Of a stretch of DNA of 64,000 nucleotides, positions 2,685 to 64,000 are shown piece by piece. Position numbers and translations under genes: made by a program. The notes beneath the pieces were generated by a model that saw only the letters and a program-made list of their open reading frames with translations, was not told the DNA's origin and ran no database searches. Source of the stretch: an uncultured Verrucomicrobiae bacterium (GTDB lineage: Bacteria; Verrucomicrobiota; Verrucomicrobiia; Limisphaerales; Palsa-1400). The first letter of the stretch is position 1; every line of letters starts with the position of its first letter. The DNA lies in the NCBI GenBank assembly GCA_963702845.1, contig OY969763.1:534719-598718 (forward strand), given 5' to 3'.

Positions 2685-5510
2685 GTGGGTAGAATGACCC
2701 TCGCCCCTAAAGCCGTGATGCCAAGACAAACCATCGAGAAACAGCAGGATAAGGCACAACGGCATCCGGCGGTTCCGCTGTTTATCGCAGTTTTGGCTTC
2801 AATTCTGTTTGGCCCTTGGATGATTTGGGCCGATTCGGCCAGCACCAATCAGATCGGCCAAGGCGTTGTTTACATGCGTTTTACGTATAAAAACCTCTAC
2901 ACGTCGACCCAACAGGTTTATGTCGTTGACGTTAATCTGAACGATTCTTCTCCGTCGGTCCGCACTCCTTTTCGCACCGGCGGCGCAACGCGCACTGTCA
3001 GTCAACATGCCGCAACCGTTCCCGGAGCGGTCGCATGTGTTAATGGCGATTTTTTCTCCGGCACAGGTGGGACGCAATTTCTCAAAGTTAACGGCGTGAT
3101 CGTCAACGGAACACAATCGGGCGCGCAAGATCAGCAGGCACTTATTAATGACGGACTCGGCCCAAATAGTGCCAGTATCGTGAGCCGTCCGCCCATTACG
3201 GGCACATGGTCGAACCTGAACGTTTCCAATATCATTGCTTGCGGGCCGGGCTTGATTCAGGACGGAGTTCCGGTAACGCAGTGCGATGACGGAGGCAGTT
3301 TTTGTGGTCGTAATCCCCGCACCGCTGGCGCGTGGACATTTAATAATCACCTACTTCTGTTTGTCATTGATGGACGTTCTTCAGTTGCAGCCGGAATGAG
3401 CCTAGTTGAGTTGCGGGATTATATTGCTGCATTCGCGCCCGTCCGCCAGGCGGTTAACTTCGATGGCGGCGGATCGAGCACGATGTGGATTTCCAGTGGT
3501 GTGCAAAACGTTCCGTCCGATGGAATTCAGCGAGGGGTGGCGAACGCCATCGCGATCGCTGCGGCAGCGCCAGCGGTTCCGGCAACGCCAATTAACTTGG
3601 TCGCCGTTCTTAGGGGCGAAAACATTTTATTGGAATGGCCGGTTTCCTCGGGTGCGATGAGTTACACGATAAAACGCTCAACTACTAACGGCGGTCCTTA
3701 CGGCGTTATCGGTTCGTCAATTGATGCTCGGTTTACCGACACAAATATAGTTATCGGCAAAACTTACTACTACGTTGTTCGAGCCGTGAACCAACTCGGT
3801 CAAAGCGTTGATTCGACTTCCGTTAAAGTCGATACGTCGCAAGTCGCAGCGGCGCCAAATTATCCATACGCGGATACAGTGATTGGGTTGGGAGCTGTTG
3901 GCTATTGGCCTCTACAGGAAACGAATGTTCCGGCAAGTTTTGCGATGGAGACGAACCTTGGGACGTTGGGATTTGCGGGCGATGCCATTTACGCCGCGAC
4001 AAATTCCAGCGCCGTCACGTTCGGCATGGACAGCGCGCTCGCATCTGACAACGCCAACCGATCGGTGCTTTTTAATTCCGCAAGGATAGACAGCTACGCC
4101 TTTGTTCCGCGCACGACTCCGGCATTGACGATCAAGCCGCCGTTCTCGCTGGAATGTTGGGTTAACCCCTCGGCAACGGCTTCCACGCAAGACCTCATTT
4201 CGTTGGGCGGCTCGGGCAAAAACAGCCCGGCGGGTTCTGGCAATTATGCCGGGTTCAGATTGTCGTTTGGCGGCGGCGCATCGGACGGCCACACGTTGCA
4301 ATTCTTCGCTTATACCGGTAACGGCGTTGTGTACAATGTTGGGAGTACTAACATCCAAACCCCGGCTGAATCCGTTTCCGTTGGACAATGGCATCACTGT
4401 GTCGCGACCTACGACGGCACCACCGTCCTTTTGTATGTTGACGGCCAATTGCAGATGACCGGAAAAACTTCGATGGCGATCGACACGTGGTCGCCTCTGA
4501 CAATCGGCACGGGTCGCTGGCAAGGAAAACCGACCCGCGGTTATTGCGGCATGTTGGACGAAGTCGCCATTTATACAAACGTGCTCGGGTCGTCGGCCAT
4601 CATTGCTCATTACAACATCGCAACTAATGCCGGCGCATCTTATCGGGACACCATCTTAAGTCAGCATCCGCTGCTCTATTACCGAATGGATTGCGCGGGC
4701 TATGTCGCTCCTGACCTTGTCCTGAATCCGATTGCGCGCAACCTCGGCTCGTCCCAAATCAATGGATTTTATCAGCAAGGCTCTGAGGCCAGTGCGACGT
4801 CGGGGCCAGCATTGGTCGGATTTGGAACAAGCAGTTTATCCGTGGCTCTCAATGGCGTCTTCAGCTGTGTTAATGCAGGTTTTCATCCCGATTCCAATCC
4901 GACCGGCACTCAATCCTTCTCAATCGCCGCATGGTTCCAAACCTATCCCTCCGACGGCTCGGTGCAGACCATAATGAGCCATGGCACAAATTCGTGGAGT
5001 TTGAACCTCGATGGCACGACCGGCAAATTGGTGTGGAACTCCGGTGCTGGAAACGTCACATCGTCTTCCGTTTTGAACGACGGCGTTTGGCATCAGGTTG
5101 TCGCTGTCCATAATGCCTCGGTGAACATTCTTTATATAGATGGAACGCTTCGAAATTCAGCAGCGGCATCGGGCGCGGTTGTGGGCAATGTGGTTGACGA
5201 CGTTTTTATTGGCGGGGATCCAGAATTCCTCAACGTCACCGGTGGGGAGCGATTTTTCGCGGGCGCTGTCGCACAAGCTGCTTTTTTCACAAATGCGCTA
5301 ACCACTGCGCAGGTGCAACAGCTCTACGTTGCTGCCACGGTTCCAATGATCAGCAGCCAATTCTCCGGCGGCCAGTTCATTATCAATTATTCCGGCACGC
5401 TTCTTTCCTCGACAAATCTGACCGGCCCATACACCTCGGTCTCTGCCGCCACATCACCCTACGCGACAACTCCAACGGGCGCGCAGATGTTCTACCGAAC
5501 AAGCAACTGA
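2685..5510 (+). CDS. secreted multidomain protein: phosphodiester glycosidase (NAGPA-like, DUF2233) + fibronectin type III + two LamG/concanavalin-A-like lectin domains, ending in the FYR-type C-terminal tail
   Basis: N-terminal signal-anchor (FIAVLASILFGPWMIWA). VNGDFFSGTGG...GGGSSTMW is the phosphodiester glycosidase signature. An FN3 block follows (YTIKRSTTNGGPYGVIG...YYYVVRAVN). Two LamG-like blocks follow (CWVNPSA...WHHCVATYDGTTVLLYVDGQ and AAWFQT...WHQVVAVHNASVNILYIDG). The C-terminus is ...STNLTGPYTSV...MFYRTSN. Confidence 0.7.
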   Translation: MGRMTLAPKAVMPRQTIEKQQDKAQRHPAVPLFIAVLASILFGPWMIWADSASTNQIGQGVVYMRFTYKNLYTSTQQVYVVDVNLNDSSPSVRTPFRTGGATRTVSQHAATVPGAVACVNGDFFSGTGGTQFLKVNGVIVNGTQSGAQDQQALINDGLGPNSASIVSRPPITGTWSNLNVSNIIACGPGLIQDGVPVTQCDDGGSFCGRNPRTAGAWTFNNHLLLFVIDGRSSVAAGMSLVELRDYIAAFAPVRQAVNFDGGGSSTMWISSGVQNVPSDGIQRGVANAIAIAAAAPAVPATPINLVAVLRGENILLEWPVSSGAMSYTIKRSTTNGGPYGVIGSSIDARFTDTNIVIGKTYYYVVRAVNQLGQSVDSTSVKVDTSQVAAAPNYPYADTVIGLGAVGYWPLQETNVPASFAMETNLGTLGFAGDAIYAATNSSAVTFGMDSALASDNANRSVLFNSARIDSYAFVPRTTPALTIKPPFSLECWVNPSATASTQDLISLGGSGKNSPAGSGNYAGFRLSFGGGASDGHTLQFFAYTGNGVVYNVGSTNIQTPAESVSVGQWHHCVATYDGTTVLLYVDGQLQMTGKTSMAIDTWSPLTIGTGRWQGKPTRGYCGMLDEVAIYTNVLGSSAIIAHYNIATNAGASYRDTILSQHPLLYYRMDCAGYVAPDLVLNPIARNLGSSQINGFYQQGSEASATSGPALVGFGTSSLSVALNGVFSCVNAGFHPDSNPTGTQSFSIAAWFQTYPSDGSVQTIMSHGTNSWSLNLDGTTGKLVWNSGAGNVTSSSVLNDGVWHQVVAVHNASVNILYIDGTLRNSAAASGAVVGNVVDDVFIGGDPEFLNVTGGERFFAGAVAQAAFFTNALTTAQVQQLYVAATVPMISSQFSGGQFIINYSGTLLSSTNLTGPYTSVSAATSPYATTPTGAQMFYRTSN

Positions 5511-5513
5511 AAA

Positions 5514-6662
5514 TCAGAGTAGTTTGCGAGGGGCCCCGAGAAGTTTGCGGGTATCCCCACCAACAGCGGTCTCCCAGTGGCCAAACCTGTCCGCGGGCAG
5601 TGGGGTGCCTTCAGCATAAACCAGGTAAACGGTATGGTGCGACGTTGACCAGGCGCGTTCTACGTCTGAGCGCTTATATATGTGGCGAACGTGTTGACCT
5701 TTTTGCAGGTTTGTCGCGGGGTCGTTGATCACGACGTCGCCGTTTTCGGTGAATCCGATGCAAACGACCAGGTGACCGTTGCCAGTGGCGTTGCGATCGG
5801 GCGCGAGCAGGTTGTATGGCGCTGAGATGATGACCGGTAGCCCCGCAACGATCCAATCCTCCAATTCGGAGATGCCGCTGAATCGGCTGACATAGGCGCG
5901 CATGCCGGGGAATTTTCCAGCCAATGCAGTGTTGAACGGCCAATTGCCGGTACCGCCAAAATTCGGATCGTAAATAGATGCGGCGACTTCAGGCACGTCG
6001 AGCGCCAACTCGGGCTGATCCAGGCGTTGGCTCCAGTGACCCAGCACCATGCTCAACGACGTCGGACTGCACCAACCTTTTTCTTGTGGATACGAGTTCT
6101 GCGATTTTTCCGGGACCGTTAAGATTTTGCCCCAAGCGGCGCGATTCGGCGGCAACGTGGCGACTTTTACGGTGGTGTCCAGAAACGAGAGCCCAATCGA
6201 CTTCAACTGAGGGGCCGCCTGGTTTGCCGCACCGTGGAGCGTGATGCGCACTTGCACTGCACCGGCCTTTTGGTTGAGTACCAACGTGTCAGATTTCACC
6301 TTCGCGTCGGCGTCGTTCTGTCCGGTGAGACTGGTGCGCTCGTGCTTCGCAGTGTCTTCGGACCAGATGCCCATGGTGTAGAATTTTGTTTTGTGACCTG
6401 GTTGCAGCGCTTGCACCTCCAGTTGAATCCAGGTGCCTGACGGCGTGACCGAGTTCCACGAGAGCACAAATTCGTTCCACGAAATCGGTGATTTGATGAT
6501 GGGCGACGTCAGCGTCGTTGCCTCGCCGGTTGTCGTCTGCGTAAAGTTGTTAAAATTTGTGAGGCCGAGAAACCGCGCCTGCTCTTCCGGACTTCCGCAA
6601 AAAGCGGACGTGATGAACGAGAGCAGACACGACAAGATGAGAACCGCCGGACGCAAATTCAT
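5514..6662 (-). CDS. secreted protein with C-terminal peptidase C39-like (papain-fold) domain
   Basis: Signal peptide MNLRPAVLILSCLLSFITSAFC. The C-terminal half (GWCSPTSLSMVLGHW...GNGHLVVCIGF...) resembles the Peptidase_C39_2 family. It sits 64 bp downstream of the giant gene on the same strand. Confidence 0.5.
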   Translation of the reverse strand: MNLRPAVLILSCLLSFITSAFCGSPEEQARFLGLTNFNNFTQTTTGEATTLTSPIIKSPISWNEFVLSWNSVTPSGTWIQLEVQALQPGHKTKFYTMGIWSEDTAKHERTSLTGQNDADAKVKSDTLVLNQKAGAVQVRITLHGAANQAAPQLKSIGLSFLDTTVKVATLPPNRAAWGKILTVPEKSQNSYPQEKGWCSPTSLSMVLGHWSQRLDQPELALDVPEVAASIYDPNFGGTGNWPFNTALAGKFPGMRAYVSRFSGISELEDWIVAGLPVIISAPYNLLAPDRNATGNGHLVVCIGFTENGDVVINDPATNLQKGQHVRHIYKRSDVERAWSTSHHTVYLVYAEGTPLPADRFGHWETAVGGDTRKLLGAPRKLL

Positions 6663-12318: not shown

Positions 12319-15300
12319 TTATGGCAGGCGTATTCGGTAGAAGCGTGTCGAATAGTTTGTCCACTGCGGGTCGGTGTAAAAGGAGATGTTTCCGGAAAGT
12401 GTGTTGGTAGAGACAGGTGTCCAATCGGTCAGGTTGGTGGTGGCTTCGACCACTGCGACAAGATTGCTGCTGCCGATCATGTTAAATCCAAATTGGTTGG
12501 CTTGTAGGCCGAAGGTGCTGTCGGCGAGTTGAATCATTAAACCGTTCCATAACACGACGGGAAGGCCGTCGAGAGTTGAGCCCCATCCTGTGGTCCCCGA
12601 GAAGTAATAGACCGTTGCCGGCTGGGTTTGGGCAAATGCGTTTGGATCCACTCCAGGTGCGTTGCCTTGAAAAATGACGTTGCGGAGGTTGGGGCACAAT
12701 TCGAAGACGTCGTTGGAGATGCCGGTGATTTTTGGGCCGAGGATTATGGTATTGAGATCCGAACAGGAAGCAAAGGCATAGCTGGCCAGGGTAGTGACGT
12801 TTGCGCCGAGAATAATGCTGGTCACGTGTGTGCCGGCGAATGAGTAGGTGGCGATGGTGTTGACGGTGTCTGGAACTCTGTAGCTACCCCTAAGACCTGT
12901 TGGGGAACTGGATCAGGGTGGTTTGGTTTTTGTTGAACAGAACGCCGCCCAGACTGCTGAACGTTAAATTTTGGGGCGACACCGAGATAGAGGTAAGGGT
13001 GTCGCATCCGGCAAGGGCTTGTGAGCCGATTGTATTTACATTGGTCCCGATATTAATGCTCGTGAGGTTTGGAGAATCGTAGAAAGCATCGAGCAAAATG
13101 CTGGTGACTGTGGCGGGAACGGTGTAACTGCCGGCGAGGCCGGGAGGATATTCGACGAGAGTCGTTTGGCTTTTGTTGAAGAGGACGCCGTTGAGGCTGC
13201 TGTAATTGGGGTTGAGTGAGTTGACGGTTATCGCCGTGAGATTGGTGCAGCCGAAAAACACGGGATTGAGGATGCTGGTTACGTTTTGGGGGAGGCTGAT
13301 ATTTGTAAGGCTTGTGCATTGGTCAAATGCGCCGGTCTTGATGGTGGTCAGCCCCGTGCCAAGGGCGACACTGGCGAGGTTGGAGCATGAATTAAAAGCG
13401 TAGTTGCCGATCGTTGCGATGCTGTTTGGAAGGGTGATGGAAGTCAGGGCCGTGCAATGATCGAAGCTGCCGCCAGTGCTGGTAAGCCCCGGGGTAAAGG
13501 TGACGTTGATCAGGTTGGAACAATAACCAAATGATTCGTCGCCGAAGGTGGTTATTTTGGGTGGGATAATGACGTTAGTGAGGCCGCCGCAACGGTAAAA
13601 TGCATTCATTCCCATGGTAGTCACGTTGGTGCTGAGGACGAGATTGGTCATGGCGAAGCACTGGTCGAAGGCGTAGTTGCCAATGCTGGTGATGGAATTG
13701 GGCATAACTACACTGGTGAGATTGGTGCAATTTTCAAAAGCGTTATCGCCAATCGACGTTATGCCGTTCGAGAGAGTGACGCTGACCAGAGCAGGACAAT
13801 TGTTAAAGGCGGATGCTCCGATTGAAGTGATTTTGCCGGGAATGACAATATTGGTCAGACTTTGGCATTGCGTGAAGCTGCTAGCGGCGATTGAGGTGAC
13901 GTTGGTTCCAATGGTGACGTTGGCGAGGCTGATGCAATTTGCAAACGCAGCACCGAGGGTCGTGACTGTATTCGGGATCGTGATAGCTGTCAGGTTGCTG
14001 CAACTCGAAAAGGCGGACGCGCCAATGTTCAGAATGCCATCCGCCAAGGCAACGGAATTCAAGGAACCGCACCCCTGGAAGGCAGAGGCTCCAATGACTT
14101 TGACGCTTCCAGGGATTGCAACGCCAGTCAACTGATAGCAGTTCATAAACGCCTGGGTTCCAATATTGGTAACACTGCCCGGAATGCTGACGGACGTTAA
14201 GCTCGTGCAATTGCGAAAGGCACTGTTACCGATATTGGTGACGCTATTCGGGAGAACGATGCTGCTGAGGCTCGAACAACCGGAGAAAGCGGAGGTGTTG
14301 ATAACGGGAACTTTGTTGCCGATCGTGACACTTGAAAGACTGGTGCAGTTGAGGAATGCGCTGCTGCCGAGATTGGTGACGGTGTTTGGGATGCTGACGG
14401 CCAGACTTGAGCAATTCTGAAATGCGGCAACTCCGATGCTCGCGACCGTTGCCGGGAGCGTCATATTGGTCAAGTCGGTGCAGCCTTCGAACGCTGTCGC
14501 GGCGATATTAGTAAGGCCAATTGGCAAAGAGATGCTTCCGAGGCTTGAGCAATTTTGAAACGTGGAGGTCGCGATGTTTTTGACGTTCGCAGGAAGAGTG
14601 AGGCTGGCGAGTGTTGCGCAACCTTGAAAGGCGGTGGTGCCGATGGTGGTGACGGTGACGGGAATGCTCACGTTATTAAGGTCAGTGCAATCTTGAAATG
14701 CGGTGTTTCCGATGTTGGTAGCAATTGAAGGAAGAATGACGTTGGTGAGGCTAGTGCAACCATAACAGAGAAAGTTGCCAACGTTCTTCATCGAGCCGGG
14801 CAATTTATCGAGGCGAGGCTGGAACAATCCTGAAATGTTCTGTCGCCGATTGAAACGACAGTGGTCGGGATGCTGATCGAGATCAGGTTTGCGCACCCGT
14901 CAAAGGCGGCAGTGGCGATATTGGTGACATGCGCTGGAATAAAAACGGAAACGAGATTGGAACAGTTGCCGAACAGGCTGGATCCGATGCTGGCCAGGTT
15001 GGTGCTGAGAGACGCGTTTGTCAGACTGAGCAACTTAGGAACACACTGACACCAAGGTTGGTGACAGCATCGGGAAGAATGATGCTTGGAAGGTTCGTGC
15101 AGTCGGCAAAGGTGTCGTCACCGATTGAGGTAACATTGGGCGGAATAGTGATGTTGGTGAGGTCGAGCAACCAGAGAATGCGTAGTAACCAATCGATTTG
15201 ACGCCGAGAGGAATGTTGACGGTGCTGAGACTGACGCACCCTTGAAAGGAGTAGTTCGGAAGAGTGGTGATGGCAGTTCCCAGATAAGCGTTTGTTAAAG

Positions 15301-15717
15301 AATTACATCCGTTAAAAACTCCGACGCCGAAATTGGTGACAGTATCGGGCACGGAAACAGCACTCAAGTAGAAGCAGCCATAAAAAGCGCTATCACCTAT
15401 AGTCTTTAACCCAGATCCCAGATTTATATTGGTCAGGTAAATATTTTGGTCGAACGCTCCCGCGCCGAGGTTTGTGACGCTGTTCGGGATGGTGACATCG
15501 TTGAAGGAGTTGTTGTGCTGAAATGCACTGTCCGCGATGCTGGTGACGGAAGGGCCGTGATGGTGTCCGGGATGTTGACCGTCCCGCCTGGACCAGAATA
15601 GCCCGTAATGGTAATCGTTCCGTTGTTTGTGGTGTAGTTGAATTGCGCCTGACCGGACGATGGCATTATCGCGACAAATACAAAAGATAACCGCAATAAG
15701 GTGAGGATGGTTTTCAT
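12319..15717 (-). pseudogene. BspA-type leucine-rich-repeat (LRR_5) surface protein, broken into at least 6 frames; carries the FYR-type C-terminal tail
   Basis: Consecutive minus-strand ORFs (15433..15801, 15035..15367, 15021..15239, 14788..15033, 12890..14896, 12319..12825) all encode the ~23-aa BspA-like unit (IPNSVTSIGNYAF..C.SLTSV.L). The N-terminus is MKTILTLLRLSFVFVAIMP, a signal peptide. The C-terminus is ...EATTNLTDWTPVSTNTL...RFYRIRLP. Frame breaks may be sequencing or assembly errors in this highly repetitive gene. Confidence 0.7.
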
Positions 15718-15811
15718 CAATTGCGCTGCGCGCCTAGGTTCACAAGTCACCTGGGCCTGCCTCGATTTGGTAGACAGGTTGTGTCTGAGTGCGCATGACA
15801 CATTGGGATTA

Positions 15812-19469: not shown

Positions 19470-22169
19470 AACAACCGAAAGTTAAATCGTCCTCCAGTTC
19501 GGAACCATGCTGCTTCGCGCCAGTGGAGGCGCGCACTGAACGTCTCGTCAATCGCTCGAAAACGTGCTCGAATATACGCTGAAAAGCCAAGGCGCGGATC
19601 AGGTGAATATTTTCCTGGAGAACCTCGTCGAACGCCTTCAGGCCGAAGGGTTGAAAGTCGCTCCGCCGGTTAACACGCCTTACGTCAATACGATCCCGGC
19701 CGAGAAAGAACCACAGTATCCCGGCAACCGCGAAATCGAGCGGCGAATAAAGAGTCTCGCGCGTTGGAATGCGATGGCGATGGTGGTAAATGCAAATCGC
19801 AATGACAGCGGCGTCGGTGGTCATATTTCCAGCTATGCTTCGATGGCGACGCTTTACGAAGTCGCCTATAACCATTTTTTCCGCGGCGGCGACAAAGGGC
19901 CCGCTGACTTGATTTATTTCCAAGGCCACACGACTCCCGGTAATTACGCGCGTGCATTTCTCGAATATCGTCTCGATGAAGGGCATCTGCACAATTTCCG
20001 CCATGGAACTGGCTGAAGGCGGCGGTTTGCCATCTTACCCGCATCCGTATTTGATGCCGGATTTCTGGCAATTCCCCACGGTATCGATGGGCTTGGGGCC
20101 GACTTTGCTCGATTTATCAGGCGCGATTTATCCGTTATCTCAAAGCTCGTGGTTTGCTCAAACCGAACAAGAACCGCGCGTTTGGGCGTTCATCGGCGAT
20201 GGCGAAACGGATGAACCGGAAACGCTCGGGTTCGATCAGTTTGGCCGCGCGCGAAAATCTGGACAATTTGACGTGGGTCGTGAACTGCAACCTGCAACGT
20301 CTCGACGGTCCGGTTCGCGGGAATAGCAAGATTATCCAGGAACTCGAAGGCATGTTCCGTGGGGCTGGTTGGAATGTCATCAAAGTGATTTGGGGTTCGA
20401 ACTGGGATGAATTGTTCGCTGCGGATAAATCCGGCTTGCTCCTGAAGCGGCTTGATGAGGCGGTGGACGGTGACTTCCAAAAATATACCGTCGAACCCGG
20501 TAGTTATATTCGTCGCCATTTCTTCGGCAAATATCCCGAGTTGCTGCGAATGGTGGATCATCTCAGCGACGAGCAATTCACGAAGCTCGTCCGTGGTGGT
20601 CATGACCCGAAGCAAGGTTTACGCGGCTTACAAAGCTGCTATGGAACACAAAGGACAGCCGACCGTGATTCTGGCCAAGACCGTCAAAGGCTACGGCCTC
20701 GGTGAAGCGGGCGAAGGTCGCAATATTTCGCATCAGCAGAAAAAGATGAACGAAAAGGAACTGCGCGAGTTCCGCCTTCGTTTTGACATTCCGATCGGTG
20801 ACGAAGACGTTGTTGATACGCCGTTCTATCGTCCGCCCAAAGATTCGCCGGAAACAACTTATTTGCTCGAACGCCGGAAAAAGCTCGGTGGTTTCGTTCC
20901 GAAGCGCATCGTTAAAGCCGGAGCCACTGCAGACGCCGCGCAGCTGACTTCGTTCCCAGATTTGCTTAAAGGCAGTGGCGCGCGTGAAGTCTCCACCACG
21001 ATCGCATTCGTCGCGATGTTGAATCACCTCGTGCGCGATCCTCACATTGGCCGTCGTGTCGTGCCGATTATTCCCGATGAAGCCCGCACGTTCGGTATCG
21101 ACCCGATGTTTGCGCAGATTGGTATTTATTCGTCGAAGGGGCAGCTTTACGAGCCGGTCGATAAAAAAGGCTTGAGCTTCTATCACGAGTGCAAAGACGG
21201 ACAGATTTTGGAAGAAGGCATCACCGAATGCCGGTTCGATGTCCTCGTTTGTCGTCGGCCGGGACTGCTTACGCGAATCACGGTGTGAACATGATTCCGT
21301 TCTTTATTTACTATTCGATGTTCGGTTTCCAACGCGTTGGTGACGAAATCTGGCTGGCTGGCGATTCGCGCTCGAAAGGTTTCATGCTCGGCGCGACTGC
21401 TGGACGGACGACGTTGAACGGCGAAGGATTTACAACACCAAGACGGTCATAGCTTGATGATGGCCAGCACCGTGCCGAATCTTTTCGCCTACGATCCTGC
21501 TTTTGCTTACGAGGTCACCACGATCATCTGCGACGGGATGAAGCGCATGTTTCAGGACGGCGAAGAAAGTTTCTATTATCTGTGCCTCTACAACGAGAAC
21601 TACCCGATGCCGCCGATGCCGGCGGTTGCCAGGAAGGCATTCTCAAGGGCCTTTATAAATTCCAGGAAGGCGCACCAGGCAAGAAGCACAAGGCGCAGAT
21701 TTTCGGCAGTGGTCCCGATCATCGTTCGGCTTTGAAGGCTCAGCAGATTTTGGCTGAACGTTACGATGTTTCCGCCGATGTCTGGAGCGCGACCAGCTAC
21801 AAGAATCTCCGCAACGACGCGTTGCTCTGCGAACGTTGGAACATGTTGCATCCGACCGAAACGGCGAAGAAACCTTACGTTCAACAGTTGCTCGAAAAAG
21901 AAAAAGGGCCGTTCGTTGCCGTGTCGGATTCCATGAAGATCGTTCCCGATCAGATTTCGAAATGGGTTCCCGGTGGTCTCACCACGTTGGGCACAGACGG
22001 CTTTGGCCGCAGCGAAACGCGCGGTGCATTGCGTCGGTTTTTCGAAATCGATGCTGAGAGCGTGGTGCGTCGCGACCTTGCGCCAGATCGATCCGAAACT
22101 TGCCGCGCAAGCTATCAAAGATTTGAATATTAATCCTGAAAAAGCTTCCCGCAGCTTGCTACCCATTAA
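19470..22169 (+). CDS. aceE: pyruvate dehydrogenase E1 component, read across at least 6 frame breaks (5' end approximate)
   Basis: Successive frames give [20 protein letters not shown]..., [98 protein letters not shown], ...[13 protein letters not shown]..., ...[19 protein letters not shown]. The stop taa is at 22167..22169. An (a)5 run at the last break suggests a homopolymer deletion. Confidence 0.8.
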
Positions 22170-22172
22170 AAT

Positions 22173-23477
22173 ATGGACGTTAAATTACCTACATCTCGGC
22201 GAAGGCGCCGACTCCGGCACAGTCGTTAACATTTACGTCAAAGAAGGCGACCAGATTGCAAAAGGCCAGAGCATCATTGAACTGGAAACTGGCAAAGCCG
22301 TCGCGCCTGTGCCGTCTTCTGCAGCTGGCAAGGTGACGAAAGTTCTCGTCGCGGTCGGTGACAAAATTTCTGTCGGTGCGCCGTTGATTTCTGTCGGCGA
22401 AGGGGCGCTGGGGCACCGCTCCCGCTGCGGCAAACCCGCTGCTCCCGCTAAGGCCGCTTCGGTTCGTGCAACAGTTGCTCCCGCAGCTGCACCAGTAGCG
22501 GAAATGGACGAACCATGGAAGTCGAGGCTGACGAAGCCGATGCCGGGCGCTACCGCCAGCCGCTTCGCCTACGATTCGCCGCATCGCGCGCGAACTCGGC
22601 ATCGACCTGCGCAAAATTCGCGGCAGCGAATCCGGCGGCCGTATCGTCATGGCCGACGTCCGCGCTTACGTCCAACGCTTGCAACGAGTCGCTGCTCAGC
22701 CTCGCGCCGCCGCCGCCGTGCACCTGCAGCGCCGGCGAAGAAAATTGAATCGATTGATTTCTCGAAGTGGGGCCCGGTCGCTGAAGAAGCCGATGACGCC
22801 ACTGCGCAAGGTCATCAGCCAACGCATGGCCGAAAGTTGGAACGCAGTTCCGCGCGTCACGCAGTTCGACGAAGCCGATCTCACTGTTGTCACCGATCTT
22901 CGCAAAAAATACGCCGAGGTTTACGACAAGAAGGGCGCGAAACTCACGCTGACTAGCTTTGCGATCAAAGTTGTCGTCGATGCGTTGAAGAAGCATCCGA
23001 TTTTCAACACCAGCCTCGACGAAGCCGCTGGCGACATCATTTACAAGGAATACGTTCACGTCGGTGTTGCCGTGGATACCGACCAAGGGTCTAATCGTTC
23101 CGGTGATTCGCGATGCGGACACCAAAGACATGGTTCGCCTTTCCAAAGAACTGAACGACCTCGCGACCAAAACTCGCGAGCGCAAAATCGGCATCGAAGA
23201 ATTGCAAGGCGGTTCGTTTACGATTTCAAACCAGGGCGGCATCGGCGGCGCTCATTTCACGCCGATCATTAACAAGCCTGAAGTCGCCATTCTCGGTATC
23301 GGCCGTGGTTCTTTGAAGCCAGTCGTTCGCGAAGGCAAAATCGAGCCGCGCCTGATGTTACCGTTGACTCTCGCTTACGATCATCGCGTCATCGACGGCG
23401 GCAACGCTGTGCGTTTCATGCTCGAGATCGTTAAGGGCTTTGAAAAATTCAGCGAAGCTGCAGTAAAGATTTCCTAA
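22173..23477 (+). CDS. aceF: dihydrolipoamide acetyltransferase (PDH E2), frameshifted
   Basis: Lipoyl domain MDVKLP(H)LGEGADSGTVVNIYVKEGDQIAKGQSIIELETGKA, with an extra a at cctAcat breaking the frame. A peripheral-subunit-binding domain follows (RIARELGIDLRKIRGSESGGRIVMADV). The catalytic domain ends ...LTLAYDHRVIDGGNAVRFMLEIVKGFE. Confidence 0.8.
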
Positions 23478-23480
23478 CAC

Positions 23481-24908
23481 ATGGATCCGATCAAAACAGA
23501 TATCGTTGTCCTCGGCGCTGGTCCCGGCGGATATGCCGCGGCATTTTATGCCGCTGACATGGGCAAAAAAGTTCTGCTCGTCGAACAAGATAAACGCCTC
23601 GGCGGCGTGTGCCTCAATCGCGGTTGCATTCCGTCGAAAGCATTGCTCCACGCCACGCATTTGTTCGGCGACGCCCGCGAATCCGCTCATCGCGGCATCG
23701 TGTTCAGTGAACCGCAAATCGATTTGGAAAAACTTCGCGCGTGGAAAAATTCCGTGGTTGAAAAACTTTCTGGCGGTATCGGTTTCCTGGCGAAAAAGCG
23801 CGGCGTGCAAGTGCTCTACGGACGCGGCTACTTCGAAGATTCGAAAACATTGCGCGTTGAAACCGCTGAAGGCCAGCAATTCGTAAATTACGAAAAGTGT
23901 ATTGTTGCCGTTGGTTCCAAGGCCGCGTTGCCTAAAGTGTTTGATCTCGGCAATCCGCGCATCATGACTTCGACCGAGAGCTTTGGAAGTCGAAGAAATT
24001 CCCGAAGACCTGCTCGTCGTTGGCGGCGGTTATATTGGCATGGAACTCGGCACCGTCTACGCGAATCTCGGCAGCAAAGTGGTTGTCGTTGAAATGCTCG
24101 ACACCATTCTGGCCGGCGCAGATTCCGACCTCGCCCGCCCAGTGCATGAAATACGCGGAGAAGAATTTTCGCGAACTTCGTTTCAAAACGAAAGTCGTTG
24201 AAATGTCGACCAAGGGCAAAAAAGTGCGCGTCGTTACCGAAGGTCCCGATAAAGTTAAAAAAGAAGAACTTTACGATCGCGTGCTTGTGTCGATTGGTCG
24301 CACGCCAAATTGCCGCGATCTCGGCTTGGAAAACACCAAGGTCGAGCAGGATGAAAAAGGCTTTATCAAAGTTAACGAGAAGCAGGAGACAACTGACCCT
24401 TACATCATGGCCATCGGCGACATCGCTGGCGGCGTCATGCTGGCGCATAAGGCTTCCAAAGAAGCGCGCGTCGCCATCGAGGCGATTTTCGGTGAAGAAA
24501 GCACCTCGGAAGGTGTCGTAATTCCCGCGGTTGTTTTCACTCATCCCGAAGTCGCCTGGTGCGGTTTGACCGAATCCGAAGCGAAGGCAAAAGGCATCCA
24601 TGTCGAGGTCGCGAAATTTCCTTGGGGCGCTTCCGGTCGCGCGTATGACCTTTGATAAACCGGAAGGTTTAACGAAGCTGATCATTGACCCTGAAACCGA
24701 ACGCGTTCTCGGAGTTGGAATTGTCGGTCACGGGGCAGGGGAACTCATCGCCGAAGGCGTGCTCGCCGTCGAAATGGGTGCCACCGCGCAAGACCTCGCT
24801 GAGACAGTGCACCCGCATCCGACCCTTTCGGAGACGATGATGGAGTCCGCGGAAGTTTTCTACGGTCACCCGACTCACACGCTCGCGCCCAAAAAACGCG
24901 AGGAGTAA
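23481..24908 (+). CDS. lpdA: dihydrolipoamide dehydrogenase (PDH E3), frameshifted at least 3 times
   Basis: [52 protein letters not shown], then [28 protein letters not shown], then [17 protein letters not shown], ending ...[17 protein letters not shown]. These are read across the track ORFs 23481..24092, 23983..24201, 24020..24655 and 24600..24908. Confidence 0.8.
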
Positions 24909-47040: not shown

Positions 47041-47817
47041 TTAATCGCCACTCCATTTGTAATCGTAACCCGCCGGCGGGTCGTAAAAGGCGGTTGCCAT
47101 GAATTCATTGGTGTACGAATACATTCTTGTATACCGCACGTGACCATCCGCAAAGCTGACCATGTTTTTTGAATTGTTCACGCCAGAGAACCCCAACGGT
47201 ATTCGTTGTGATTCGTGCCAGGAAAACGGATATAGAGCCGCGTTTTCAGCGACCAACACCGTTCTCGCCGGGTCGTGGATTGCAGCCAGTTTCCAGCCGA
47301 ATAGACCGGGGGAATTTGTCTGGCCCGATAAAAAAGGCGGCGTGTTAACCGTTCCGCCAAGTCCATTGAAGCCGTAACTGGAATAGTCGGAAATATACTG
47401 TTCGTGCCAACCTGCCGCGACGAATGTCCAATTGTTGTAAAAATACGTATCGGCTGGGCACGCAAACACCCGGTCGCGTTCCGACGAGAGCCCTCGCAGG
47501 CCCAGGTAGGATTTCACCAATGCTTTGTAAACGACTTGAAAAGAGTTGGTCATCATACCATCGGCATTGGTATCGGGAATCGATGGCAGCTCGTCGTGAT
47601 TGTCTGCCGCATACAAATGCACTGCAAAATTGATCTGTCGCAGATTGTTCAGACAGTTTGCCTGGCACGCTTTTTCTTTGGCGCGGCTGAGCGTCGGAAG
47701 CGGTAAGGCAGCGAGAAAGGCAATGATCGAGATAACAACCAGAAGTTCAATCAATGTGAAGCCTTCCTTCGCGTTGCTGTCACGCCACTGTCCTTGCCTC
47801 TGGAATCCTTTAAACAT
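47041..47817 (-). CDS. prepilin-type N-terminal cleavage/methylation domain protein with DUF1559 (PVC-typical pseudopilin-like)
   Basis: GFTLIELLVVISIIAFLAALPLPTLSRAKE at the N-terminus and ...NMVSFADGHV near the C-terminus. Confidence 0.75.
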   Translation of the reverse strand: MFKGFQRQGQWRDSNAKEGFTLIELLVVISIIAFLAALPLPTLSRAKEKACQANCLNNLRQINFAVHLYAADNHDELPSIPDTNADGMMTNSFQVVYKALVKSYLGLRGLSSERDRVFACPADTYFYNNWTFVAAGWHEQYISDYSSYGFNGLGGTVNTPPFLSGQTNSPGLFGWKLAAIHDPARTVLVAENAALYPFSWHESQRIPLGFSGVNNSKNMVSFADGHVRYTRMYSYTNEFMATAFYDPPAGYDYKWSGD

Positions 47818-52444: not shown

Positions 52445-54382
52445 ATGCCTGTGCGTCGTCTGACTGCAAAACTGTCGCGGATTTCGTTGTTGCTGGTGCT
52501 GCTCGCAACGGCAGTTCACTGCTTTGCACAAACGATGACGTCATCGGGTTTGCGCGCGACGTTTGTTGCCGCCGACGGCAAAACGACGGATACGAAAATG
52601 ACGCCGACGCTGGCGATCTACGTGCCGGAAGGGGAGTCGCCGACGAGTTTTTTGCCGCGTGGCAAATTTCGCGTGACGTGGTCTGGGTTTATTCGCGCGG
52701 ATTTGCGGGACGAGATCAGTTTTCAGGCTGAAGTGAATGGGACGTTTAAACTGGAGATCGGCGGCGTCACGGTGTTGGAAGCTGCAGACACCAAAGGGCC
52801 GACGGCGTTTAGTGAGCCGGTGCGGTTGAAAAAAGGCCTGAACATTTTGCGTGCGACATTCAGTTCGCCGATGACGGGCGACGCGTTTGTGCGACTGAAA
52901 GTAAAGACTTCGGAGGGGTTGGTTCAGCCGCTGGATCCAACACATTTGGATTGTGCCGATTCCTCTGAATCTCGTCGCGGGGATGCGATGCGCGACGGGC
53001 TTGCGTCGTTTCTCGAACATTGCTGCGCGAGGTGTCATGAAACCGGAATTTCAAACGGCACTCCCGATTTGAACATGGATGCGCCGGCGCTCGATGGGAT
53101 CGGTGCACGTCTGCGTGGAGATTGGATGGCGCGGTGGGTGGCGGATCCGCGGTTGATCCGGGCTGATGCGCACATGCCGCAAATCCGCATCGCGAGCCGT
53201 CCTGAAAACGCGCGTGCGATCGCGGTGTTTCTCGCCAGCACAGGCACCAATTTCAACGAGCCTGCTCAACCGAGACTGACGTCCACCGAAATCAAAAAGG
53301 GGCAGGCACTGTTTGAGAGCCAACACTGCGACGTCTGTCACTATACCGAAGGTGCGGGCACGCCGGATTCGACGAAGGTGTCGTTGTCGAATGTTGCGTC
53401 GAAATTTTATCCAGACGCTTTACGGGCCTACATTGAAAAGCCGGATGCGTTTTATAAATGGACGGCGATGCCGCGGTTTCGCTTCGGTCCCGGCGACGCG
53501 GATTTGCTGGCGCGTTGGCTGATTACGCGCAGCCTCGCGTTTTCGTCAAACAACACGCCTGCCACGAGGGAAGAAGTCGAGCACGGGAAAGAGTTGGTGC
53601 AAACGCTGGGTTGCCTGAATTGTCACGCGATGAATCTGCCGAATAAATTTTCGACGATGCCGCTGGCGCGCGCGGAGGTGACGCATGGCGGTTGTATTGG
53701 TTCACAGCCGACGATTGATTTTGGTTTTGCTCCAGTTGAGCGAAGCGCGATTCACCTGTGGCTTTCGAACGAACGCACTTCGCTGACGCGCAACGTGCCG
53801 ATGGAATTTGCGGAACGGCATTACGTGCGGTTGCTTTGTGCGGAGTGCCACCAAAAGGTCGAAGGCGTGGCGGGGCTAAATAGAATTGGTGAGAAACTAA
53901 AACCGGAATGGATGGGACGGTTCATCGACGGAGACATCGCGCAAAAACCGCGGCCATGGCTGTCGTCACAAATGCCGGCGTTCCCGCAATATGGCGTTGG
54001 CATCGCGCAGGGATTGGCCGAACAAAATGGTTTTGCGCCACATTCGCCGACGAACAAGCCGGTCGCCGAGCTTGCCAAAATCGGCAGTCAGTTGGTGCAG
54101 GCTCCGCCGATAGGTTTGGCGTGTGTGCAATGTCATGCGAATGGCGCGACGATGCCGTCGATTTCAGATGCGCCGGGGATCAATTTCGCGTTCATCGCGC
54201 AGCGCCTGCAGCCGTCGTATTTTCAGCGATGGGTCCGCAAACCATCCGCGATTGATCCGCAGACGAAAATGCCTTCGTTCTTTACCGCCGAAGGCACGAG
54301 CCCGCTGAAACAATATTTCGAGGGCAATGCCGATATGCAAATCGCGGCGATTTGGGAATATCTACAAACGCGACACGAGTAG
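52445..54382 (+). CDS. secreted pentaheme c-type cytochrome (Planctomycete-cytochrome-type domains)
   Basis: Signal peptide plus five CxxCH motifs: CARCH, CDVCH, CLNCH, CAECH, CVQCH. Its 3' end overlaps convergent pckG by 21 nt. Confidence 0.75.
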
Positions 54383-59778: not shown

Positions 59779-60540
59779 TTACCAGCTGGTGATGTTGTCT
59801 CTGTTGACGTTGACGCCAGTGTTCGGATCGGCGTTGGCATCGATCGCTTTGTCCGGACCGGCAGTCCAGATCATGACTTCGACGGGCATGTTCGTTTGTG
59901 CCTGATTGAACTTCTGATACAACGGGGCGTAGAAGGCGTCGCTGGTGTAGTTGTCGTAATTCATGTCCAGCGAGATCATGTAGGGATTGCCAAATGGATC
60001 ACGCAGGACGCCGTTGGCGTCGAGGCCAGGGGCGTCGCTGACCAAGGCAGTATTATTTGCAACTTTGGCGTTGAAGAAGGCGAGTTTGCGCGGGTTCAAC
60101 GCGTTATTGTAGTTGGGATTCATCCCCGGGTAGGTCAGGTTGGGAGCTGCATTCGCTGTGAGAATGTTGAGCACTTCGGCGTTGCAATTCTCGTAGATCC
60201 CACCGCTGGGGGGGATATTAAAGACCTTGTAGGTGGAACTGATCGAGTAGGTGCCTGACTTGGATTTGCCTTCTGTGCCAAAGGTGAAGTCGCCCCCAGC
60301 GTTAGCGCTGCCAAGGACCGATGAGGAAGCTGGGAAACGGCTGTAGTCGGCTTTGTACTGAGTGATAGCCGTGGTGAGGTTTGCCATTTCGGTCCGGGCA
60401 ACTTTGACCTTGGCGGCAATTTTCGCTCTTGAAAGCGCAGGCAGGAGCAGCGAGGCCAGGATCGCAATAATGGCAATGACGACGAGCAATTCAATCAGGG
60501 TAAATGCGAGCGAACGCTGACCCCCTCCTTGTGTTCTCAT
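59779..60540 (-). CDS. prepilin-type N-terminal cleavage/methylation domain protein (T2SS pseudopilin / type IV pilin-like)
   Basis: SLAFTLIELLVVIAIIAILASLLLPAL at the N-terminus. The start codon overlaps the stop of the upstream giant gene (ATGA). Confidence 0.75.
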   Translation of the reverse strand: MRTQGGGQRSLAFTLIELLVVIAIIAILASLLLPALSRAKIAAKVKVARTEMANLTTAITQYKADYSRFPASSSVLGSANAGGDFTFGTEGKSKSGTYSISSTYKVFNIPPSGGIYENCNAEVLNILTANAAPNLTYPGMNPNYNNALNPRKLAFFNAKVANNTALVSDAPGLDANGVLRDPFGNPYMISLDMNYDNYTSDAFYAPLYQKFNQAQTNMPVEVMIWTAGPDKAIDANADPNTGVNVNRDNITSW

Positions 60541-63500
60541 GGTTCTATATTATGCAATCGAACGGCCCTGTAAAAGAGTAAAATTGATGGCTCGCCGTTT
60601 GTGAACACGAAACTGCCATCAGGCAAATTGTTAGTGGCGACGGGTGTCCAGTTGGCGAGGTCGGTTGAAGCTTCGATCACGTGAACGCAATTGGCGTCGC
60701 CGACGAGCGTGGTGCAGAACCCGCCCGAGTCCGTGCAATGCGGCGCGACGAAGTGGGGCGGGTGTGGCTGTGTAACAAAGAGCGTTAGTGTCCAACCGTT
60801 CGCGATTAGTCCTGAATCAATGATACGGTCATCGAAGACATAAAGGTTCCAATCGCCATAGGTGCTTTCATGGGCGAATTGGGCAAGACCGATGTTGGTG
60901 TAGCCGGGCGCTGGAGTGGGAAAATCGATATTGTCGTAGGCGCTCGGGTGATACGTGCCGCTGGTCAACGGCGCATTGAATGGAAGGTCGGCGCCAAGGT
61001 CGTCAAATAGCAGATCGACGTTTTGGAGTGGGAAATCGCGACCGCCGCCTGCGTTGATCATGAGTGGTGTTGTTTTTCCAGAAGGACTTTGGAGGAGAAT
61101 GCAAATATCGCTCGGATAGGTATGGCCCAAGCCCAACAAGCCGACCTGAACGCGGTTGACGTCTTCCGGATAGATGCAGCTAACGTGAATTGCGGATGGG
61201 TAAGGTGACCCGGGTTGATTGTCGACAATCCCGATCGGAGCGGAGTTGGCAAAGGTCACTGAATTGGTGACGGCGATGTAGTCATCCACGCGCAACGTCG
61301 CGCTGTTTGTCACGCTGCTGCACGGGCCATGAACTTCTACCGTGATGCTCGTCGGTGGCGTTCCGGCGGCAAGGTTTGGAATCGCTAAACTGTTATTGGT
61401 TTCGCCGTCGAGGAGTTGGCCATCGCGCCGCCAATCGAATGTGAACGGACCGGCTCCAGTTGGAGTGGTAGTGAAGATGGCTGTTTCGGTCGGGCAATGA
61501 GTTTGATCGCCCATCGACGTTGTTGTTGTCGGAACACCGACCAGAAGCAGGCCTGTGTTCGTTGCGGAATTACACGACGCGGTGACTTCGACGGTGTAGG
61601 TGCCGGCGTCGTTTGATGTCACTGCGTTGAGCAGGAGGTTGCTGGTCGATTGGCCGGACATGAGAATGCCGTTCTTGCGCCAACGATAGCTGAATGGACT
61701 CGTGCCCGTTGGCGTGGCTTTGAAGGCGGCACTTTGGCTCGCACAGCGAATCAACGTGCCGAGCGACGCGACGGTGACGTTCGTGCGGATGGTGAGAGTT
61801 GCAGTGTTGGTGACCGTGTTGCACGCGCTGCTTACTTCCACGGAATAGAGGCCGGCGTTGCTGGTGGAAAGGCTGCTGAACGTGAGGGAACTGTTGGTTT
61901 GGCCGGGGATCTGGATTCCGTTTTGCCGCCAAACGAAAGAGAAAGGACCATCACCCGACGCGACGGTGCTAAAGGTAGCCGTTTGGCCGGCGCAACGCGT
62001 TAACGAGAACATCGTGCTTGCGGAAATGCTGGGAAGAGAAAGCGTGGCGGAGTTTGTCAGGGTGATGCACCAATTGTTGATCTCGACGGAATACGTTCCG
62101 GCGTCTTGTGGATTTGCGACCTGAACAGTCAGGGACGAATTCGTCGCGCCTGCGACGGCGGTTCCGTTTTTGCGCCAGAGGTAGGTTGCAATCGGATAGT
62201 TCGAAATCGTTGTGGTGAACACAGCGGTTTGGTTGGGACATGCGCTGACGTTTGCTAAAGCCGTCGCTGTCATGTAGTCGCCAATTAACAGAGCAGCGGT
62301 GTTAGTGGCGGAACTGCATGCACCGGTTGCCTCAACGGTGTAAGTGCCAGCGTCGGTTGCGGTGACGTTTGCTATTGCGAGGATGCTGCCAGTGCTCGCC
62401 AATGTGACGCCGTTCTTTTTCCAAACATATTGAAATGGCCCGGTGCCAGATGGTGTTGCAGTGAACGACCCGGTGCCGCCGAGGCACGCCAAGGCATCGT
62501 GGATGGCGACCGTGTTTGCGATATTGTCGATATGGATTGAAAGATTGTCAGCCGTGTTGGCGTCGAGAACTGAAGCCGGTGGCGAGATTATGGCGATGTT
62601 TGTCAGTGTGCAGTCGACGGGTGTCGCCAGTATTCCGGTCGCGGTGAAAACGACGGCTTGATGAATTGGGATGTCCAGCGCCGCGTTAATGTTGCCGTTG
62701 CCGTTGGTGACGTCGCCGCTGGAGTTGCCGAGGAACGCGGCTGACCAGGTCACGTTGCTCAGTGTTGTGGGGAAGGCGTCCGAAAACGGGGCGCCGATCA
62801 CCGGCGCGGCGCCATGGTTTGTCACGGTGATTGTGTAAGTCACGAGTTGGCCGTTGGTGTAGGAGCGAGCGGTGTTATCCTGCATGACGGCGAGGTCGGT
62901 TTGGAAATTTACGCCGCATTCACCGGGCCGTTCGGCGGGGACAAAGATCGCATTGAGCATCATGCGCCGACCGTTATAACACTCGAGCGACGATTGAATG
63001 CCGTAGTCGTGGCCGCCGAGGTAGAAGATGCAGGTGCCGGTTTGGCCGGGGCGCAGTTTTGCGACAGCGGCATAAGGTTGGTTCGCCGTTTGGCCAGAGA
63101 TGTAAACGGCAGTGTAAGCGCTGTTCGTGAAACCAGAGTTGGCGCGAAATCCCCAGTTGGCGACGGAGCTGGTCAACGTCAAATTGGTCAGGCCGCCGTC
63201 GAATTGGCCGAAAGCGCAATCGGCGTTGGTAAACGCGCAGGTGCCGGTGGCGTTGAGCACGGTTATGCCACCCGTGGTGTGAAACTCGCCGTAGAGCGGG
63301 TTGTTTTCGTAGGTGGTGACGGCCGCGCATTGGCACAAGACGTTGCCGCCGCTGGCCAGAAAACCGCGGATAGCGAGCGTCTGGGCATTGGTGTTCGTGC
63401 CGCCGTCGTAGTGCGGCGCGGTCACGATGGTGAAACAACTGGTGGTTGTGAGCAGCGGGAGATTTGTTGCAAAAAGAACCTGATAATCGTTAGGCGAGAA

Positions 63501-64000
63501 GCCGGCTGCGGCGAGCACATTTGTTTGGATCCCGTGAAAGGCACCATCCGCCATGACCGCGACTTTAGGTTTGTGCGCGAGCGTGTATCGGACATCTATG
63601 ATGGTGTCGGCGGTAAGCCGATAAACGGCGACGTTGTTGCTCCAGTTGGAAATGATGGGCATCGCCACATTTGTGTAGGCGCTCTCGATGACGAACGGGC
63701 CAGCGCGGAAGTTGTAGGTATTGGTAATTGTAACTTTGAACAGAAGTGGAACGGCACTCGCGCTAAAATCGATTGCATCTTTGCTTTTGCCGGCGGCAAT
63801 CGCCCATTTCACCGGAATATTCGAGTGGAGCAGAAAATTGATCAGGCCATATGCCTTAAGGTTGAACGGAGTGCCGCCCAGAGCCTGAAGGCTGTTGTCC
63901 ATCGGGATGACGAGCGAACCGGCGGAAATGGTTTCGAGATTTGGACGTACGCCAGGAAGGTCTGGATCCGTTTGCGCGAAGGCACTCGTGCAAAGAAAAA
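60537..64000 (-). CDS. large secreted protein (>1150 aa, N-terminus beyond window): alpha/beta N-domain + about 6 Ig-like (I-set type) repeats + proprotein-convertase P-domain + FYR-type C-terminal tail
   Basis: The ORF stays open to the window edge, and ...FLCTSAFAQTDPD looks like the end of a signal peptide. Repeated units read ...F.Y.W.KNG..L.G.T...L....V...DAGTY.VEV...C.... The P-domain reads YPSDICILLQSPSGKTTPL...GDWNLYVFD...GWTLTL. The C-terminus is EASTDLANWTPVATNNL...LFYRAVRL. Confidence 0.7.
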   Translation of the reverse strand, partial: FLCTSAFAQTDPDLPGVRPNLETISAGSLVIPMDNSLQALGGTPFNLKAYGLINFLLHSNIPVKWAIAAGKSKDAIDFSASAVPLLFKVTITNTYNFRAGPFVIESAYTNVAMPIISNWSNNVAVYRLTADTIIDVRYTLAHKPKVAVMADGAFHGIQTNVLAAAGFSPNDYQVLFATNLPLLTTTSCFTIVTAPHYDGGTNTNAQTLAIRGFLASGGNVLCQCAAVTTYENNPLYGEFHTTGGITVLNATGTCAFTNADCAFGQFDGGLTNLTLTSSVANWGFRANSGFTNSAYTAVYISGQTANQPYAAVAKLRPGQTGTCIFYLGGHDYGIQSSLECYNGRRMMLNAIFVPAERPGECGVNFQTDLAVMQDNTARSYTNGQLVTYTITVTNHGAAPVIGAPFSDAFPTTLSNVTWSAAFLGNSSGDVTNGNGNINAALDIPIHQAVVFTATGILATPVDCTLTNIAIISPPASVLDANTADNLSIHIDNIANTVAIHDALACLGGTGSFTATPSGTGPFQYVWKKNGVTLASTGSILAIANVTATDAGTYTVEATGACSSATNTAALLIGDYMTATALANVSACPNQTAVFTTTISNYPIATYLWRKNGTAVAGATNSSLTVQVANPQDAGTYSVEINNWCITLTNSATLSLPSISASTMFSLTRCAGQTATFSTVASGDGPFSFVWRQNGIQIPGQTNSSLTFSSLSTSNAGLYSVEVSSACNTVTNTATLTIRTNVTVASLGTLIRCASQSAAFKATPTGTSPFSYRWRKNGILMSGQSTSNLLLNAVTSNDAGTYTVEVTASCNSATNTGLLLVGVPTTTTSMGDQTHCPTETAIFTTTPTGAGPFTFDWRRDGQLLDGETNNSLAIPNLAAGTPPTSITVEVHGPCSSVTNSATLRVDDYIAVTNSVTFANSAPIGIVDNQPGSPYPSAIHVSCIYPEDVNRVQVGLLGLGHTYPSDICILLQSPSGKTTPLMINAGGGRDFPLQNVDLLFDDLGADLPFNAPLTSGTYHPSAYDNIDFPTPAPGYTNIGLAQFAHESTYGDWNLYVFDDRIIDSGLIANGWTLTLFVTQPHPPHFVAPHCTDSGGFCTTLVGDANCVHVIEASTDLANWTPVATNNLPDGSFVFTNGEPSILLFYRAVRLHNIEP

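Follow-up and report, generated by a model that had tools for sequence, protein, structure and literature searches.

A C-terminal beta-sandwich domain on exported proteins of Verrucomicrobiota, a possible sorting or retention tag

What does it mean that three large exported proteins of otherwise unrelated architecture end in much the same way? The question is raised by a 64,000-nucleotide stretch of DNA from an uncultured Verrucomicrobiae bacterium (Limisphaerales, Palsa-1400; GenBank assembly GCA_963702845.1, contig OY969763.1, positions 534,719 to 598,718 of the forward strand), referred to here as the window, which encodes an immunoglobulin (Ig)/P-domain protein, a BspA-type leucine-rich repeat (LRR) protein, and a phosphodiester glycosidase/LamG protein with similar C-terminal tails. 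A sequence-only reading of the window had taken these tails for a candidate sorting or anchoring signal. The tail, we find, represents a domain family missing from the curated libraries and undescribed as far as the searchable literature shows. The domain is specific to one lineage, the Limisphaerales/Pedosphaera-type Verrucomicrobiota, where it is found on Sec-exported multidomain extracellular proteins, and it may serve there as a tag for sorting or retention. “FYR type” is used below only as a label for the motif; Pfam scans gave no sign of kinship with the eukaryotic FYRN/FYRC domains.

Homology and fold of the tails

The Ig/P-domain protein carries a tail of the long class, HPPHFVAPHCTDSGGFCTTLVGDANCVHVIEASTDLANWTPVATNNLPDGSFVFTNGEPSILLFYRAVRLHNIEP, at 60540..60764 on the reverse strand, recognized by translation, by a hidden Markov model (HMM) of external copies, and by a BLASTP match to the LRR tail. 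According to the list of open reading frames (ORFs), its translation, and Pfam, the host gene (ORF 60537-63902, reverse strand) encodes a DUF11 repeat, four to five Ig domains, a proprotein-convertase P-domain, and then the tail, with matches to Ig_3, I-set, DUF11, and P_proprotein; because the frame is open up to the window end (63998), the N terminus is cut off. The LRR gene (12319..15801, reverse strand), delineated from ORFs, Pfam, and a frame map, encodes a signal peptide, LRR_5 repeats (E = 7e-152 in Pfam), and a second long-class tail (...FGLQANQFGFNMIGSSNLVAVVEATTNLTDWTPVSTNTLSGNISFYTDPQWTNYSTRFYRIRLP; 12322..12540, reverse strand), supported by translation, the external HMM, and AlphaFold2 (AF2) models. 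The gene contains about five frame switches, and its final piece is ORF 12319-12825 (reverse strand). The third gene (2685..5510, forward strand) encodes a signal peptide with the N-terminal hydrophobic segment ...VPLFIAVLASILFGPWMIWA in its translation, a phosphodiester glycosidase domain (NAGPA in Pfam), an FN3-like stretch, two LamG domains (Laminin_G_3 in Pfam), and a tail of the short class (...FSGGQFIINYSGTLLSSTNLTGPYTSVSAATSPYATTPTGAQMFYRTSN; 5343..5507, forward strand), of which the HMM-matched core covers 5385-5507. The three peptides that the sequence-only reading had cited as C termini proved in translation to be true ORF ends, and its view that the cargo parts are unrelated is borne out by Pfam domain sets that differ from protein to protein. 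The window thus contains three tails per 64 kb.

The tails of the Ig/P-domain and LRR proteins align directly (BLASTP E = 5e-11, 50% identity across 32 amino acids). A long-class HMM built from 314 external domain copies only, when run against the six-frame translation of the window, recovered only two sequences, the tails of the LRR protein (E = 1e-30) and of the Ig/P-domain protein (E = 1.5e-9). Judged by sequence, these two tails are certainly homologous. The LamG tail gave no BLASTP alignment with either of them, ranked 123rd of 2,372 ORF tails with the long-class HMM, at 4.7 bits, and was not drawn into the long class by iterative HMM searches across 1.2 Mb of related loci. These loci are the best 80 of at least 485 relatives, 20 kb each and 1.16 Mb in all, and were seeded with LRR-type tails only. 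The LamG tail resembles shorter tails in six of them (L071, L028, L006, L020, L068, and L069), which follow roughly the pattern L.W...L..S..L.GP(W/Y)..V..SPY......FFR. A short-class HMM from which window sequence was excluded had the LamG C terminus as its sole match in the window (E = 0.0022), and jackhmmer connected this tail to that of L071:838-2880.

Among the methods tried, only profile-profile comparison joins the two classes: hhalign returned probabilities of 94% and 90% (E = 1.7e-7 and 1.5e-6), with the caveat that the short-class set was first chosen with the regular expression F-[FY]-R. We regard the LamG tail as a probable divergent relative of the long-class tails. The claim that one motif ends all three proteins therefore stands for the Ig/P-domain and LRR tails and, taken strictly, fails for the LamG tail, which belongs to the short class only. 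Could the shared ending have arisen by chance, or by convergence of low-complexity sequence, with no common origin? The isolation of the LamG tail in pairwise comparison and the way in which the short-class set was chosen speak for such a coincidence, but the pairwise and independent HMM matches of the long-class tails, thousands of homologues, confident beta-sandwich models, and the specific recognition of the LamG C terminus by the short-class HMM reduce its probability to almost nothing. For the two long-class tails it is refuted.

The conserved unit is an all-beta domain of about 65 to 75 amino acids, with a shorter variant of about 45 to 55; proteins with tandem copies define a repeat unit of about 76 amino acids. 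The motif of some 40 amino acids originally described is consequently too short, covering part of a folded domain with seven predicted strands. An AF2 model of 73 amino acids reached a predicted local distance difference test (pLDDT) score of 78 with 5 beta strands, and a model of 97 amino acids from 105 sequences reached a pLDDT of 71 overall, and of 80 to 90 in the core, with 7 strand segments. The seven modeled strands can be assigned to a two-sheet sandwich of the FN3/Ig-like kind as A, A', B, C, C', E, and F. The chain stops right after R-F-Y-R-I, the F-like strand, and lacks a G strand in these models.

An alignment of 36 divergent members gave the pattern L.l.W/F...G..Y.l..S.(D/N)L....W..v.....G...f.D.......R-F-Y-R-(V/L/A)-x-x-(P/Q/N), in which the F and R of the final strand are more than 90% conserved. 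This last strand bears the motif F-[YFW]-R with hardly any variation, and four more residues, most often closing with Pro, usually complete the chain. With F and R at positions i and i+2 and no G strand beside them in the models, the two residues may form an exposed patch along the sheet edge that would lend itself to beta-augmentation by a partner.

Distribution, position, and cargo

A database profile made from 12 sequences, biased to the LRR type and including the LRR-tail linker, matched 10,277 cluster representatives at E<=1e-3 among 1.84 billion. In species-representative genomes, at least 485 relatives were confirmed by tblastn among the 598 pattern matches listed. The best 80 loci come almost entirely from Verrucomicrobiota metagenome-assembled genomes labeled Verrucomicrobiae, Limisphaerales, Pedosphaera, or subdivision 3; the few with other taxon labels may be bin mislabels.

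The C-terminal bias supposed for the tail was confirmed when positions were tabulated by HMM. In 262 of 271 retrieved proteins (about 96%), no more than 10 residues separate the last copy from the protein end; most of the other nine appear to be frameshifted read-through. Among six-frame copies in the related loci, 100 of 108 lie within 10 amino acids of a stop; the remainder are upstream members of tandems plus a few truly internal copies. The stretch after F-Y-R is exactly four residues long in 92 of 109 locus copies and 317 of 394 database proteins, and the final residue is Pro in about 85%. One subfamily weighs most heavily in these chain-end figures, but P, Q, or N is the last residue in divergent subfamilies as well.

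The proteins that carry the tail fall into at least 12 unrelated extracellular architectures, and every cargo type identified is extracellular, which agrees with the proposal of a modular tail on diverse cargo. Divergent members include PKD, Ig_3, LRR_5 with Big_7, phosphoesterase, alpha-amylase with malectin, and NHL propeller domains, and also GH88 with cadherin-like domains, DUF5122, CotH with LTD and TSP3, FG-GAP with UnbV_ASPIC, and PA14; the window adds Ig/I-set, LRR_5, and NAGPA with LamG. Full-length members, like the window's LamG and LRR proteins, begin with Sec-type signal-peptide-like N termini, and ends resembling PEP-CTERM occur in 1 of 786 long ORF segments of the related loci. 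The observations that could have overturned the idea of a terminal tag on secreted proteins were looked for: there were no cytoplasmic hosts and no match to a known lectin, and the positional bias was strong, with few internal copies.

The smallest cargo seen is a secreted family of about 145 amino acids (P0295-P0391, for example P0300; L020:14274-14954), which has a signal peptide, a GGFW region, and a short-class tail ending in NLFFRLSNP. The region reads YSIDWYK..GGGTSTGG.Y.V.GTIGQ.DAG..MTGG.Y.LTGGFW and has no Pfam annotation. TSP3-like calcium-binding segments of the form D.DGDGLPDWWE..YFG often lie directly upstream of the tail (P0291, P0304, P0306, and L032:2176-7581, with a TSP3_bac match in Pfam for L032) and may be a recurrent linker.

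Possible roles and neighboring genes

We tentatively read the F-Y-R tail as a C-terminal tag for sorting or retention, specific to the lineage and analogous to the type IX secretion system's (T9SS) C-terminal domain (CTD) but outside that family, and give this reading close to an even chance. The tail is tag-like because of its positional bias, its fixed chain end, its unrelated Sec-dependent cargo, its high copy number, and the lack of alternative sorting signals in the loci. At the extreme C terminus of Sec-exported host proteins, the tail would act as a cargo tag, and an envelope component would recognize the folded tail after export. Such recognition, with whatever cleavage or attachment might go with it, would serve either to carry the cargo past the outer membrane or to retain it there.

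Several observations weigh against a sorting role. No candidate sorting machinery, cleavage site, or conserved neighbor gene was found in the window or the related loci. The fold is a generic FN3/Ig-like one, and a PDB sequence search with profile A3 gave borderline matches to CBM32 chitosan-binding modules (E = 1.2e-3) and to the FN3 domain of neuroglian (E = 0.029), confined to the central strands (L.W...Y.i..S.D...W..V) and compatible with a binding module. Two to three tandem copies occur in 50 of 271 retrieved proteins (about 18%), and a few copies are internal: at residues 696-771 of 946 in L046, and in L014:14554-15498 (reverse strand), where a tail-like domain at residues 42-111 of 315 is followed by about 200 amino acids, starting from NMVFIPPG, that resemble FGE-sulfatase (SUMF1). 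The signals of T9SS, PEP-CTERM, and LPXTG systems, in contrast, are single and terminal. The samples themselves are biased, the loci toward the LRR subfamily because the search used LRR-type tails only; and since tails are most similar within a cargo family, part of the conserved-end statistic reflects shared LRR-subfamily ancestry.

Tandem and internal copies, a generic fold, faint similarity to carbohydrate-binding and FN3 modules, and the failure to find machinery all fit a passive binding or spacer module. The tail would then be an FN3/Ig-like domain for binding, oligomerization, or spacing, for example a glycan- or matrix-binding one, that has been shuffled to C termini and has no part in export or localization. 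Repetition is typical of binding modules where avidity matters, and the covariation of tails with cargo family is also what such a module would show. Against this, ordinary FN3, Ig, and carbohydrate-binding modules obey no positional rule comparable to the terminal placement seen here, and the end of four residues, with terminal Pro, Gln, or Asn, is kept even in divergent subfamilies. The tail is moreover shared by a dozen unrelated cargo types, including the 145-amino-acid family with little beyond a signal peptide and the tail, and among the C-terminal features of large exported proteins it dominates in loci otherwise free of sorting signals. We consider a passive module a serious possibility, if on balance not a probable one. 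A bolder form of the sorting reading, which we think rather unlikely, is that the tail is the recognition domain of an undescribed, CTD-dependent secretion or attachment pathway of Verrucomicrobiota, possibly of the wider Planctomycetes-Verrucomicrobia-Chlamydiae (PVC) group, independent in origin of the Bacteroidota T9SS. Such a pathway would serve cargo proteins by the dozens to hundreds in each genome and would dock them by the exposed last strand (invariant F-x-R, end four residues on).

The genes next to the tail genes of the window were considered as partners. A pseudopilin gene (N_methyl and T2SSG; AFTLIELLVVIAIIAILA) at 59779-60540 on the reverse strand has a 4-nucleotide overlap with the stop of the Ig/P-domain gene, which suggests translational coupling of the pair. 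A link of the tail to a type II secretion system or pilus was rejected because such adjacency is not general, a prepilin gene lying next to 1 of 109 tail genes. A second prepilin/DUF1559 gene is located at 47041-47817 (reverse strand). A Peptidase_C39_2 cysteine peptidase with a signal peptide (5514-6662, reverse strand) is convergent with the LamG gene, the two stops being 4 nucleotides apart. It was rejected as a tail-processing enzyme; its adjacency is probably coincidental, since none of the 80 related loci has a homologue.

The window also encodes two heme-binding proteins, one of 1,618 amino acids with a cytochrome c-like CxxCH region at its end (6727-11583, reverse strand) and one of 645 amino acids with multiple CxxCH motifs (52445-54382, forward strand). 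Both types are, we presume, common in PVC bacteria, and a Verrucomicrobiota/PVC origin of the window is consistent with them and with the DUF1559 prepilin gene. The genes for pyruvate dehydrogenase E1, E2, and E3 (19500-24700, forward strand) are broken up into ORFs that overlap, differ in frame, and cover their Pfam profiles only in part. Because these essential genes are split as well, the frame switches of the LRR gene are probably assembly indels; the assembly probably carries many such errors, and the LRR gene is probably not a pseudogene.

Little is understood of how PVC bacteria, with their very large sets of extracellular enzymes and adhesins, bring these proteins across the outer membrane or onto it. 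The tail defines a candidate cargo set and permits phylogenetic profiling for the machinery. Even if it is only a binding module, a curated family would improve the annotation of thousands of “hypothetical” surface proteins of Verrucomicrobia.

Comparison with known systems

The tails of four host proteins had no match in Pfam or NCBIfam at E<=0.1, and 36 diverse tails searched against the same libraries at E<=10 produced scattered single weak matches with no recurring family. Models for the T9SS CTD (PF18962/TIGR04183), CHU_C (PF13585/TIGR04131), PEP-CTERM, LPXTG, and fn3 were silent for the tails, including in the 36-tail scan to E<=10. The sequence-only reading, which could place the motif in none of the sorting domains it considered, was right in this respect for the T9SS CTD and PEP-CTERM. 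A PDB sequence search with profile A1 found nothing, and a Foldseek search against the PDB found nothing below E = 0.4.

The short signals recognized by exosortase (PEP-CTERM), sortase (LPXTG), and the “x-CTERM” systems are, like the F-Y-R tail, C-terminal tags on diverse exported cargo, and they are present in some PVC bacteria. In signals of the PEP-CTERM and LPXTG type, a short motif is followed by a transmembrane helix and a basic cluster, whereas the F-Y-R tails have neither hydrophobic helix nor basic cluster. The three window C termini lack the elements of PEP-CTERM (TIGR02595/PF07589), with no TIGR02595-type match, and lack the LPXTG motif. Common FN3 and Ig modules differ from the tail in that the 36 tails matched neither fn3 nor Ig models in Pfam, in that the modeled tail chain has no G strand, and in that the C-terminal positional rule is not theirs. 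The resemblance to CBM32/discoidin domains (F5_F8_type_C; PDB 2RV9 and 4ZXE) spans about 42 residues of a jelly-roll of about 135 amino acids, while the tail is half as long and is predicted to form an FN3-like two-sheet structure; of the 36 tails, a single one touched PF22633, weakly (E = 0.0029), so that the tails do not belong to CBM32/F5_F8_type_C.

The closest functional parallel is the T9SS CTD. Both it (about 70 to 90 amino acids) and the F-Y-R tail are beta sandwiches at the extreme C terminus of Sec-exported multidomain proteins, both sit on modular and diverse cargo (LRR/BspA, PKD/Ig, glycosidases, and proteases), and both occur in many copies per genome and are best conserved in the last strands. 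In Bacteroidota, T9SS CTDs occupy the equivalent position in BspA-type LRR proteins and in enzyme-PKD/Ig architectures. An Ig-like beta sandwich at the extreme C terminus of signal-peptide-bearing cargo, which the tails share, is too generic to make them T9SS CTDs. The tail has no sequence match to the T9SS CTD at the thresholds tried and has motifs of its own (E-x-S-T-D-L..W and F-Y-R); it also differs in having tandem copies and in being found in Verrucomicrobiota, whereas the T9SS CTD is found in Bacteroidota. No PorK/L/M/N, Sov/SprA, PorV, or PorU was present among the 24 window ORFs in the Pfam scan, and Ig_7 (“CHU_C associated”) was matched in one cargo protein, upstream of the tail and not on it. 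To our knowledge, the T9SS is confined to Bacteroidota and the Fibrobacteres-Chlorobi-Bacteroidetes (FCB) group, and we know of no T9SS in Verrucomicrobiota.

The searchable literature on C-terminal sorting domains in Verrucomicrobiota yielded only a remark on Amuc0953, a sulfatase of Akkermansia muciniphila. This enzyme is cell bound, its final domain resembles T9SS CTDs in an AlphaFold 3 model, and a comparable system was proposed for this verrucomicrobium, on the basis of that model only (Nat Microbiol 2026, PMC13524802), a precedent within the phylum for the reading as a tag. Amuc0953 and the F-Y-R tail proteins both belong to Verrucomicrobiota, and both the tail and the final part of Amuc0953 are small beta domains at the end of multidomain proteins, a likeness by description only; profiles A1 and A3 matched no Akkermansia chain in the PDB sequence set.

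The tail as a divergent but genuine T9SS CTD (type A or B), in an organism that has a T9SS, would account for its position, size, and general beta-sandwich class and for the similar cargo types, and the proposal made for Amuc0953 points the same way. The T9SS CTD and CHU_C models, silent both for the host proteins at E<=0.1 and for the 36 tails at E<=10, the unlike motifs, and relatives that belong here to Verrucomicrobiota nevertheless make it very improbable. A C-terminal beta sandwich as a cargo tag is already known as a concept, and the F-Y-R tail, if it is such a tag, may be connected to the T9SS-like CTD proposed for Akkermansia.

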